Below, piece by piece: positions 5,419 through 10,547 of a stretch of 33,749 bases of DNA. Location: contig JAZFUS010000348.1 of NCBI GenBank assembly GCA_036447315.1, positions 1 through 33,749 on the forward strand, read 5' to 3'. Both the position numbers and the translations under genes were made by a program. The notes under the pieces are model-generated. The model saw only the letters and a program-made list of their open reading frames with translations, made no database searches and had not been told where the DNA came from. Source of the DNA: Dehalococcoidia bacterium (GTDB taxonomy: Bacteria > Chloroflexota > Dehalococcoidia > JACVQG01 > JAZFUS01). The stretch's first letter is position 1. Each line of letters begins with the position of its first letter.

Positions 5419-6317
5419 TGGTCATGGACCAGGTGGACCCGGCTGACGTGGACGACGCCATCGAGGCCCTGGCCAACCGGCTGGGCCTGGACGAGGCCAA
5501 GGTGGTCAGACAGTTCAGGGTCTGGATGCACGGACCACCCAAGGCCACCGGCCTGGAGACCAGCCTGGAGGCCGACACCATCCTGCCCCTGCTGGGCAAG
5601 ATCCAGGGGGAGCTGGGCCCGGTGGCCAAGTCCGGGGAGGACACGTTCCTGCACCGGACCTACGCCACCATCGGGGACGTCATGGCCGTGGTGGGCCCGG
5701 TCCTGTTCAACCACGAGGCCACCCTGATCCAGGAGCCGGAATTCCTGGGGACCGTCAGGGTGGGGCGGCCCTTCAAGAAGGGGACCGGCCACGAGATCCT
5801 GGAGGTGGACCTGGCCCGCTACGCCATGAGGACCAGGCTGTGGAAGGCCGGGCAGTGGGTGGGCAATACCTTCGTGGCGGACTGCGAGTCCACCGAGCCC
5901 AAGGCCGTGGGGTCCCTGGACACCTACCTGCGCCGCTACGGGATCGTGACCCTGTTCCTGCTGGTGACAGCGGACGACGACGGGGAGGCAGCGGGGCGGG
6001 AGCCAGCCAAACCCAAGCAGCGGCCCAGGGCCCGGACTGGTGCCAGGACCGAGCCAGCGGCTGCGGCTGCGGTGCGGGCAGGCACCGGGAAGTTCTCCGA
6101 CCACCAGGTCGAGGACGGCCTGAAGCGGGCCCAGGATGCCCTCTGGGACAGGCTGGTCAAGGCAGCGGACGGGGACGAGAACGTGGCCAAGGACATCCTG
6201 GTGGACGTCAGCAGGGACGCCCAGGGGCTGGGAGTCCGGAGCGTCTACCAGCTGCGGGACGACCAAGCCATCGACCGGGCCAGCCAGGCCCTGGAGGGTT
6301 CGAAATGGAGCGGCTGA
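5418..6317 (+). CDS. erf: ERF-family single-strand annealing protein
   Basis: ATG 5418 lies in a TGATG overlap. KSGEDTFLHRTYATIGDVMAVVGPVL and GSLDTYLRRYGIVTLF resemble the P22 Erf motifs (KYKYRSCEDILEGVKPLL, SSYARKYCLNGLFGI). The C-terminal tail is acidic and disordered-looking. Confidence 0.8.
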   Translation: MVMDQVDPADVDDAIEALANRLGLDEAKVVRQFRVWMHGPPKATGLETSLEADTILPLLGKIQGELGPVAKSGEDTFLHRTYATIGDVMAVVGPVLFNHEATLIQEPEFLGTVRVGRPFKKGTGHEILEVDLARYAMRTRLWKAGQWVGNTFVADCESTEPKAVGSLDTYLRRYGIVTLFLLVTADDDGEAAGREPAKPKQRPRARTGARTEPAAAAAVRAGTGKFSDHQVEDGLKRAQDALWDRLVKAADGDENVAKDILVDVSRDAQGLGVRSVYQLRDDQAIDRASQALEGSKWSG

Positions 6318-6478
6318 ACTACACCGAGAACACCCTGCGGATGGCCATGAACCTGGCCAGGGGGCAGGGCGCGGACGCAGGATACCGGCAGGGCGTCAGG
6401 GCTGGCCTGCTGTGGGCCCTGGCGGCAGTGGCCACCTGTGGGGCCACCGTGGGCCTGCTGACCTGGTGGGCCAGCTGA
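6305..6478 (+). CDS. small membrane protein (57 aa)
   Basis: GGAGGG lies 6 nt before ATG 6305, and the gene overlaps erf by 13 nt. The C-terminus is hydrophobic (LLWALAAVATCGATVGLLTWW). Confidence 0.5.
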   Translation: MERLNYTENTLRMAMNLARGQGADAGYRQGVRAGLLWALAAVATCGATVGLLTWWAS

Positions 6479-8912: not shown

Positions 8913-9355
8913 CAGCCATCGACCCCTGGACCGAGGCCTGCGGCAGGCTGTGCAAGCGGATCCGGAAGCGGGGCTACCTGCCCGCCGTGAAGCTGGAGCT
9001 GGAGGACCCGAGCTGCCAGGAGGCCGGGCTGATGGTCCCCTGGTCCGCCATGATCAGCAACCTGCTGGCCCCGGAAGGGGAGCCCGCCGTCCCCCTGGTG
9101 TTCCCGGACATGGAGCCCAGGACGTTCGCCTGTGGCCGGTGCCAGGACCAGCTGTACCTGCTGCGGGAGGTGGACGGGGTGGTGTATTCCAGGAAGTGCC
9201 ACCCCTGCCTGGCCTGGGACCGGATCTACATCGAGGCCGAGCGGAAGGGCGGCAAGACCATCAGGGGGTCCATCAGCGAGGACCAGGACCCCACGACCGA
9301 CCGGGCCCCCAGGACCATGCCCCGGCTGGGGATGTTCTCCGACGAGGGGAGCTGA
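8909..9355 (+). CDS. hypothetical Cys-containing protein (148 aa)
   Basis: ATG 8909 lies in an ATGA overlap. It carries CxxC-like pairs (CGRLC, CGRC, CHPC). The stop overlaps the next start (TGATG). Confidence 0.7.
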   Translation: MTAIDPWTEACGRLCKRIRKRGYLPAVKLELEDPSCQEAGLMVPWSAMISNLLAPEGEPAVPLVFPDMEPRTFACGRCQDQLYLLREVDGVVYSRKCHPCLAWDRIYIEAERKGGKTIRGSISEDQDPTTDRAPRTMPRLGMFSDEGS

Positions 9356-10200
9356 TGCGGACGTTCTGCCCAGAGTGCGGGCCCATGGTCTCGGTGGACG
9401 AGGACGGATGCTGCGCCCACTGCGGAAATGGAGCCGCTGGGGAAGCGGTGGAGCGTATGTTCAGGGACCGGGACCAGCTGCGGGAGGTCCGGTCAGCGGC
9501 GGCCAAGTACCAGGCGGACCCGGTCAACCTGGACGACCGTCCAGAGTCCTGGGGGCTGCTGGCGGACCTGCTGGACATCATCGAGGAGGGGTCAGACCAT
9601 GGACGACCGGACCCTGCCGGTGGTGACCGAGCAGAGCATCAGGAACGCGGGGAAGGCAGCCAAGGCCGGGGCGGCCAGGCGGACACCGTGGAAACATCCG
9701 AGCCTGCCCAGCGCCAGGATCGAGATCCTGCTGGCCAGGATGGACGAGACCAACCGGGAGGTGCAGGACCTGCTCCGACGACTGGCCAGGTCACCATAGT
9801 CCTGGACCTGCCGTGCCCGGACAGGCGGCTGAACCCCAACACGGCCCGGCGGATCCACAGGCGGTCAATCGCCAGGATAGAGGCAGCCAGCAGGTCAGCG
9901 GTGGGCTGGGCGGCAGCGGCCTGGACCATGCAGCACAGGAAGCCCAGGCTGCTGAACGCCCTGGTCCAGTGTACGATATACGCGAAGAACCCCAGTTTTG
10001 TGATGGACGGCGACAACGCCCTGGCCCTGTCCAAGACCATGTTCGACGGGATGGCAGACGCCGGGATTTTTACCACCGACAGGAAGCTGGTCCACTGGCC
10101 AGTCCTGCAGCCGGTGGACAAGGCAAAAGCTGGCCGGGTCAGGGTGATCATCAAACCCATGGCCGACAGCTGGACGCCGATTCTGATGGAGGGAGCGTAA
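9355..10200 (+). CDS. rusA: continuous ORF: N-terminal zinc ribbon, odd linker, C-terminal RusA-family Holliday junction resolvase domain
   Basis: ATG 9355 opens a zinc ribbon (CPEC...CAHC). The frame has no stop until TAA 10198-10200. From about 9796 it encodes IVLDLPCPDRRLNPNTARRIH...MDGDNALALSKTMFDGMADAGIFTTDRKLV, which matches the RusA D-x-D-N-xx-K...D...DD pattern. Codons 9600-9790 in this frame have poor G/C third-position bias. Confidence 0.6.
   Translation: MRTFCPECGPMVSVDEDGCCAHCGNGAAGEAVERMFRDRDQLREVRSAAAKYQADPVNLDDRPESWGLLADLLDIIEEGSDHGRPDPAGGDRAEHQERGEGSQGRGGQADTVETSEPAQRQDRDPAGQDGRDQPGGAGPAPTTGQVTIVLDLPCPDRRLNPNTARRIHRRSIARIEAASRSAVGWAAAAWTMQHRKPRLLNALVQCTIYAKNPSFVMDGDNALALSKTMFDGMADAGIFTTDRKLVHWPVLQPVDKAKAGRVRVIIKPMADSWTPILMEGA
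9599..9799 (+). CDS. hypothetical basic protein (66 aa) overlapping the 9355-10200 ORF in another frame
   Basis: ATG 9599 runs to TAG 9797-9799 (MDDRTLPVVTEQSIRNAGKAAKAGAARRTPWKH...REVQDLLRRLARSP). G/C third-position bias is strong here, unlike the overlapping frame. Confidence 0.5.
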   Translation: MDDRTLPVVTEQSIRNAGKAAKAGAARRTPWKHPSLPSARIEILLARMDETNREVQDLLRRLARSP

Positions 10201-10547
10201 TGCCCCAGAAATCACTGAAGGGGTGCAGCCGTCCAGGCTGCCCCGAGCTGACCAGGGGCCGGTTCTGCAAGCCCCACGAGGAGGTCTATCAGCAGACCAG
10301 GGACCAGGGCCGACCGACAGCTGCGTCCAGGGGCTACGGCTCCAGGTGGCAGCAGATCCGGAAGGTGGTCCTGCGGGAGGAGCCGTTCTGCCGGTCCTGT
10401 TCTGCACCGTCCACCGAGGTGGACCACATCAAACCCATGTCCAAGGGCGGGGACAATTCCAGGGGCAACCTGCAGGGCCTGTGCAAGAGGTGCCACAGCA
10501 GCAAGACCGGAAGCGTGGACGGCGGATTCGGGAACGTGGCGTCGTGA
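10200..10547 (+). CDS. HNH endonuclease (terminase-associated type)
   Basis: ATG 10200 lies in a TAATG overlap. Motifs are CRSC...VDHIKPMSKGGDNSRGNLQGLCKRCHSSKT (HNH with flanking CxxC pairs). It lies just upstream of terS, as in HK97-like phages. Confidence 0.85.
   Translation: MPQKSLKGCSRPGCPELTRGRFCKPHEEVYQQTRDQGRPTAASRGYGSRWQQIRKVVLREEPFCRSCSAPSTEVDHIKPMSKGGDNSRGNLQGLCKRCHSSKTGSVDGGFGNVAS

Follow-up and report, generated by a model that had tools for sequence, protein, structure and literature searches.

A RusA-like Holliday-junction resolvase domain encoded in a phage-like contig was found to lack a start codon, and the open reading frame (ORF) upstream of it was found to lack a stop codon. 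We read the two, with a probability of about 60%, as parts of one real protein of 281 amino acids made up of an N-terminal domain (N-domain), a linker and RusA, with a separately initiated gene nested within it in the +1 frame. The window, meaning the whole stretch of DNA analysed (33,749 nucleotides), is an entire 33.7-kb contig (JAZFUS010000348.1; 65.8% GC) from a metagenome-assembled genome (MAG) of a Dehalococcoidia bacterium. The original prediction, made from the sequence of the window, had described the missing start and offered four explanations: a fusion with an overprinted internal gene, a double frameshift, non-canonical initiation and assembly indels. Comparison of the window with two relatives, loci L002 and L004 (a further contig, L003, is a partial copy of the L002 junction from a second sample), best supported the first of these: the layout recurs in both relatives and, on the sequences compared, is unusual but conserved and not an assembly error. 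Coordinates of the features are collected in Table 1.

The frame said to be open from ATG 9355 to the end of RusA proved to be so. Frame 1 contains no stop between 8950 and the TAA at 10198–10200, and translation from ATG 9355 gives 281 codons before the stop. This ATG is preceded by a Shine-Dalgarno (SD)-like sequence and overlaps the TGA of a 148-residue upstream gene as TGATG. The first 81 residues form the N-domain, for which AlphaFold gave a predicted local distance difference test score (pLDDT) of ~68–86, with helices at residues 29–54 and 63–81. Homologues of its zinc ribbon are small proteins, mostly of 52–245 residues and without a RusA part, and the closest of them terminates at its own stop. 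The GC content at third codon positions (GC3) changes frame along the ORF: in the fusion frame it is 0.77–0.93 over 9355–9535, falls to 0.43–0.70 over 9580–9760 (versus 0.86–0.93 in the +1 frame) and is back at 0.83–0.90 from 9805, in a phage whose overall codon usage has a GC3 of 0.875 and T at 0.056 of third positions. This confirmed the frame-specific third-position bias and the +1 ORF at 9599–9799 on which the overprinting idea had been built. An Rfam scan of 9200–10400 at E ≤ 1 gave no relevant match (neither an intron nor another known RNA element). In all, the fusion frame has 416 open codons (8950–10200) and extends back across the preceding 148-residue gene, whose coding frame is a different one, an illustration of how scarce off-frame stops are in this 66% GC genome.

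By sequence, catalytic residues and modelled fold, the C-terminal domain belongs to the RusA family. It matched phrog_34 (RusA-like resolvase) with an E-value of 5.5e-8. The window protein alone had no match to Pfam PF05866 at E ≤ 1; this family was matched by 9 of the 25 members of the RusA alignment (A5), which comprised the window, L002, L004 and 22 more distant homologues. A phmmer search over 1.8 billion representatives returned hundreds of RusA-sized proteins, whose residues 2–5 typically align with residues 147–150 of the 281-residue product. The ten invariant columns of the alignment (P, L, N, D, D, N, K, D, D, P) are all kept in the window, and the catalytic columns D75, D77, N78, K84, D88 and D99 of A5 are invariant, including in the window, L002 and L004 (the catalytic reference residues of E. 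coli RusA are D70, D72, K76 and D91). The A5 profile matched E. coli RusA (1q8r) with an E-value of 2e-10 over residues 1–117 of 120; its DxDN block was paired with the catalytic RDLDN of 1q8r, and the K and DD columns after it were aligned as well. In the AlphaFold model of the 281-residue product, pLDDT exceeded 90 at residues ~147–270 and strand beta1 occupied residues 148–153, and Foldseek gave target-normalised template modelling (TM) scores of 0.70–0.77 to 1q8r, 2h8c and 2h8e (E down to 1.8e-6). Sequence and model thus present an intact RusA fold with its catalytic residues, and since the invariant columns, the profile match and the modelled fold are all kept, RusA remains constrained. 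Alignment and model place the start of the domain at 9796, where the original prediction had put it.

Between the end of the zinc ribbon and GTG 9901, GTG 9688 is the only in-frame ATG, GTG or TTG, which agrees with the earlier claim that these two GTG codons are the only candidates nearby. Starting at GTG 9901 would delete beta1 and the invariant P, L and N of the LSPN motif, so that the conserved N-terminus would be lost, as had been argued. Likewise, the first downstream in-frame canonical start in each relative lies well inside RusA (ATG 6001 in L002, GTG 718 in L004). All 22 distant homologues open with a Met, 0–15 residues (mostly 0–4) before beta1, and the missing start is therefore specific to the clade of the window, L002 and L004; the Met of four homologues (P0010, P0015, P0024 and P0029) falls in the same alignment column as the Ile encoded at 9796 in the window. 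The SD scan detected no SD-like core in the 25 nt upstream of ATA 9796; neighbouring genes have an SD and an ATG.

Automatic calls start RusA at GTG 9901 in the window and at ATG 6001 in L002, and these starts might be taken to indicate that RusA is a decaying or N-terminally truncated remnant without resolvase function. We consider this very unlikely. The ~35 codons upstream of 9901 have a GC3 of 0.83–0.90, are conserved (64–75% amino acid identity across the three loci over the ~35–36 codons from beta1 to 9900) and hold the invariant P, L and N, and the downstream in-frame starts of the three loci are at non-homologous positions. Moreover, RusA carries neither stops nor frameshifts despite heavy synonymous divergence. 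The automatic calls shorten RusA to 99 residues in the window and 123 residues in L002, neither product retaining beta1 or the LSPN motif, and the zinc-ribbon ORF of L002 was left uncalled (gap 5513–5756); the probable cause is the conflict between the long ORF and the embedded gene. The opposite error was met in two database RusA homologues, P0028 and P0009 (L005 2001–2729 and L006 1683–2249), which are annotated with N-terminal extensions of 60–120 residues. In each, an internal GTG immediately precedes beta1, and GC3 does not rise ahead of that codon; the extended N-termini are, judging from the sequences, probably over-called, and because of the internal GTG starts these proteins are not further examples of a start-less RusA.

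Both relatives repeat the arrangement of the window. L002 was reached through P0006, the one close RusA homologue in the protein database (123 residues, 64% identical, truncated at its N-terminus); its contig carries a single 288-residue ORF (5506–6372) consisting of the zinc-ribbon domain, a linker and RusA, with an embedded 71-residue +1 ORF (GTG 5756) homologous to the 66-residue protein of the window. L004 is a 1.3-kb contig found by a second scan of JGI metagenomes with the alignment as query. It has a 284-residue ORF (166–1020) whose C-terminal RusA is 71% identical, and a 75-residue +1 ORF (ATG 422, SD AAGGAGG) of the same family as the embedded protein of the window. For the 85-residue N-domain of L004, no similarity to the zinc ribbon could be detected (E 0.5); it is a Cys-containing helical domain (166–420) at the zinc ribbon's position, preceded by a mini-ORF of 16 codons (ATG 115 to TAA 165) that has no counterpart in the window. 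In all three loci the upstream ORF begins with SD and ATG and lacks a stop, a +1 gene is embedded, and RusA has no start codon; the switch in GC3 from the fusion frame to +1 and back is likewise common to them. An orthologue with a stop after the upstream ORF, or with a canonical RusA start, would have spoken for separate genes; neither feature is present in L002 or L004. These loci have diverged considerably: the RusA domains are 66–71% identical in amino acid sequence, the N-domains of the window and L002 are 38% identical, window and L002 share ~79% nucleotide identity, and the uncorrected synonymous difference (pS) among the loci is 0.33–0.53.

The same comparison bears on the proposal that assembly or sequencing indels broke three ordinary genes. 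Although the window is a MAG contig and gene callers gave shortened RusA models, the frame pattern is shared by three different sequences from different samples, whose lengths differ only by multiples of three; one such difference is a 12-nt indel at the first junction. Moreover, L002 and L003, which come from two samples, agree at every base of the RusA-proximal junction. Indels are effectively excluded, and we give them practically no weight. L003 is identical to L002 from ~base 35 on; its first 34 bases are unrelated (L003 1–34 versus L002 5846–5879) owing either to a chimeric contig end or to a recombination breakpoint within the embedded gene. The relatives came from the protein database (L002 and L003) and JGI metagenomes (L004), and no others were found: none in INPHARED phages, none in IMG/VR with RusA patterns, the upstream 148-residue gene or an embedded-gene DNA pattern as queries, none among GTDB genome contigs with the RusA alignment as query, and none in 40 relatives or 400 same-class genomes. 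With the HNH alignment as query, the GTDB contigs yielded one distant HNH locus (L088), which has no RusA.

We then considered the segment between the two domains, where two frames overlap. In the fusion frame it encodes a low-complexity linker whose amino acid sequence has no detectable conservation among the three loci, though the frame stays open, and which AlphaFold modelled as disordered (pLDDT <50 for residues 82–136). In the +1 frame, 9599–9799 is a complete ORF inside the longer same-strand ORF with start signals of its own, and the same holds for L002 (GTG) and L004 (ATG); upstream of the embedded starts of these relatives, the SD equivalents are GAGGAG and AAGGAGG, respectively. The embedded protein of the window is 52–56% identical to those of L002 and L004. 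No Pfam, PHROG, Atlas or wider sequence homologues of it were found, and by these searches the gene is an ORFan restricted to the clade of the window, L002 and L004. In both relatives the embedded ORF extends 36 nt past the beta1 codon and ends in TGA; on this comparison the window has acquired an earlier TAG.

Pairwise Nei-Gojobori proportions of nonsynonymous and synonymous difference (pN/pS; uncorrected, on short, GC-biased, overlapping sequence) differed between the frames. Within the overlap, pN/pS was 0.66–0.72 in the embedded frame versus 0.86–1.56 in the frame of the long ORF, which over RusA gave 0.54–0.59. The embedded frame is thus the one under amino acid selection. Because of these ratios and the disordered, low-complexity linker, we take the embedded frame to be the constrained reading of the overlap and the long-ORF reading there, as far as such ratios can tell, to be a spacer of free sequence. 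The embedded gene is most simply regarded as separately initiated and nested, because each of the three loci provides it with an SD and, at normal spacing, a canonical start codon.

Programmed frameshifting, known from prfB, dnaX and the phage tail chaperone G/GT in its +1 and -1 forms, was suggested as another way to connect the frames: a +1 shift near 9595 into 9599–9799 and a -1 shift back near 9796 would yield one polypeptide. The locus resembles those systems in that the best-conserved frame changes along the transcript, to +1 and back in all three loci, and the first switch is closely preceded by an SD-like GAGGAG, as are +1 shifts of the prfB type. It differs from them in having no conserved shift site, an open zero frame and a second frame with its own start. 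No slippery heptamer, in-frame stop or hungry codon is shared at the junctions of the three loci, each embedded ORF begins with a canonical codon (ATG, GTG and ATG) at normal SD spacing, the first junction carries the 12-nt indel, and in L002 and L004 the +1 frame continues 36 nt beyond the onset of RusA conservation. With the zero frame open, frameshifting is also unnecessary. We found no support for the double shift and judge it highly improbable.

A further alternative keeps three separate genes and has RusA initiated at a near-cognate codon, AUA in the window and AUU or AUC in L002 and L004 (collectively AUH), possibly by ribosomes terminating on the embedded gene. In such an arrangement a free 15-kDa resolvase would be kept deliberately low and a read-through fusion would be a tolerated by-product. 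The beta1 Ile codon is ATA in the window, ATT in L002 and ATC in L004, so that an AUH codon stands at the Met position of several homologues in 3/3 loci. AUA, AUC and AUU initiate at 1–2% of AUG in E. coli, where infC and pcnB naturally start with AUU (10.1101/063800). The ATA of the window overlaps the stop of the embedded gene (ATAG at 9796–9799, as noted in the original prediction), and in L002 a GGAGG lies 10 nt upstream of the ATT. However, no SD-like core precedes the beta1 codon in the window or L004, leaving L002 as the only locus with an SD at usable spacing, and the ATAG coupling is not conserved, the embedded stop of L002 and L004 lying 36 nt beyond the codon. The use of three different Ile codons resembles drift rather than selection for one start; synonymous drift is what an ordinary elongation codon is expected to undergo. 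Nor has the codon ever reverted to ATG, though G makes up 42% of third positions. Separate initiation also leaves the stop-less upstream ORF in 3/3 loci unexplained. The locus is therefore like infC and pcnB in having AUA, AUU or AUC at the homologous start position, and unlike them in having no conserved SD, three Ile codons in use and an open upstream frame, which makes near-cognate initiation unnecessary. The suggestion of non-canonical initiation is compatible with the codons; an SD is usable at one locus of three, and the upstream ORF is not accounted for. We regard separate initiation as unlikely, though deserving of real weight. The two models are not mutually exclusive; because the upstream ORF has a good SD and ATG, the fusion should outnumber a product made at 1–2% efficiency.

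Rare Ile codons were also considered. ATA and ATT account for 7.7% and 5.6% of Ile codons overall. RusA of the window (9796–10197) uses them at 5/9 Ile positions versus 13% in the phage's other genes, which hints at a different codon-usage history for the RusA gene. A rare Ile codon as a start signal was rejected as uninformative, since RusA uses such codons at so many of its positions.

For the fusion with a nested gene, the proposed course of translation would be simple. Ribosomes would load at the SD and ATG of the upstream ORF, meet no stop and continue into RusA, which would have no initiation site of its own and would be read through the off-frame of the gene at 9599–9799; on the embedded 66-residue gene, translation would begin independently at that gene's SD and ATG and follow the +1 frame. 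Since the upstream ORF has no stop, its translation must yield the fusion, and the default product would be a 30.5-kDa protein accompanied by a nested 7.4-kDa protein. The fusion would presumably be the form that supplies resolvase activity and the linker only a spacer, and the arrangement may have arisen by loss of a stop and of a start around the intervening gene. Fusion across an intervening gene is possible because high GC keeps off-frames open. The dissimilar N-domain of L004 suggests that the partner may matter less than delivering ribosomes.

Several observations weigh against the fusion. The linker frame has poor codon usage and no amino acid conservation. When synonymous codons of the embedded protein were resampled under phage codon usage, the fusion frame stayed open in 40–46% of trials per lineage, and comparable windows in the phage's own genes were open in the fusion-frame offset in 62% of cases. 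Chance openness being so common per lineage, openness across the overlap is weak evidence; the joint chance is ~0.08 if the lineages are independent, which they are not fully. The three known lineages share ancestry, and the layout could have arisen once and persisted. No natural fusion of an N-domain to RusA is annotated among the top 150 database matches; such ORFs would probably escape callers that do not allow long overlaps on the same strand. At beta1 the codon is AUH, from the near-cognate set, in every locus, and free RusA could also be made; the sizes of fusion and free RusA are those predicted from the ORFs. Chance does not explain the combination of a stop-less upstream ORF with a start-less RusA, both repeated in two diverged relatives.

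Compared with known systems, the arrangement combines known kinds, a domain fusion and a nested gene, and has been seen so far in one small clade of uncultured phages. RusA of the window is like that of the E. coli Rac prophage (1q8r/2h8c; PF05866; phrog_34) in profile, fold, DxDN/K/D residues and the beta1/LSPN region. Known and database RusA proteins are single-domain proteins of ~120–150 residues with their own Met just before beta1, whereas RusA of the window has no start and is the C-terminal part of a 281-residue ORF. Nested (overprinted) phage genes include lambda Rz/Rz1 and the embedded genes of phiX174. As in those cases, a longer gene contains a complete small +1 gene on the same strand, equipped with an SD and a start codon; unlike in those cases, the signal of codon usage and amino acid conservation lies in the embedded frame, while the host frame encodes a disordered, unconserved linker between two otherwise independent domains. 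It seems that the long gene extended across one already present, instead of a young gene emerging within an older one. An engineered fusion of FokI through a 33-residue linker to a catalytically dead RusA (dRusA) is reported to retain junction targeting (PMC12120656). Like the 281-residue product, it carries RusA behind an N-terminal domain and a long flexible linker; being artificial, catalytically dead and built with another partner, it speaks only to tolerance of an N-terminal fusion, which by this analogy is plausible for RusA. A literature search turned up no account of a RusA that lacks a start or is naturally fused at its N-terminus.

More tentatively, the layout may itself be selected, as a 'leapfrog' fusion in which RusA depends on an exchangeable upstream ORF and selection keeps the off-frame stop-free and beta1 without an ATG. 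Resolvase synthesis would then be coupled to, or limited by, the upstream gene, by a route that only high-GC genomes allow; we hold this to be possible but doubtful. If the fusion is real, two independent proteins have been joined via the 'wrong' frame of a still-expressed third gene between them, which would show how high GC, with few off-frame stops, permits fusion across an intervening gene, and would provide a natural N-terminally extended RusA. The locus also exposes a systematic failure of annotation, in which automatic callers shorten RusA and skip the upstream ORF of L002, and it offers a simple test system for tying nuclease dosage to an upstream gene.

Table 1. Features of the RusA locus in the window (positions on the window; all on the forward strand).
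Feature	Coordinates	Strand	Remarks
Shine-Dalgarno-like GAGGGGAG before ATG 9355	9344..9351	+	SD scan
Continuous ORF, N-domain + linker + RusA	9355..10200	+	281 codons + TAA; predicted 30.5 kDa
N-domain: CPEC...CAHC zinc ribbon, then two helices	9355..9597	+	without own stop codon
GAGGAGGGG, E-E-G codons of N-domain doubling as embedded-gene SD	9583..9591	+	7 nt before ATG 9599
Linker in fusion frame	9598..9795	+	66 codons, 94% G/R/D/Q/E/P/A/S/T, low GC3
Linker translation in fusion frame			example peptides span ...EEGSDHGR... and ...TTGQVTIVLDLPCPDR
Embedded +1-frame gene	9599..9799	+	66 aa, basic (isoelectric point 11.1), 7.4 kDa, own SD + ATG
GTG, only canonical in-frame start in linker	9688..9690	+	rejected as RusA start, the codon being CTG in both relatives (L002 and L004); no convincing SD
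ATA (Ile), first residue of RusA strand beta1	9796..9798	+	overlaps embedded-gene TAG (ATAG)
RusA-like Holliday-junction resolvase domain	9796..10200	+	134 aa, 14.9 kDa, invariant residues of the family
GTG used by automatic gene call	9901..9903	+	99-aa product P0005

The RusA gene sits in the recombination/replication block of the phage, adjoining HNH endonuclease and terminase genes. The 39.6-kb L002 contig is syntenic with the window and encodes ERF, HNH, the small and large terminase subunits, portal, protease and capsid. On 80 IMG/VR contigs with distant HNH relatives (31–54% identical), the 2.5-kb flanks contain no RusA of this kind. The start of the HNH endonuclease gene overlaps the RusA stop as TAATG (10198–10202 in the window), and HNH is 79–85% identical among the three phages, better conserved than RusA.

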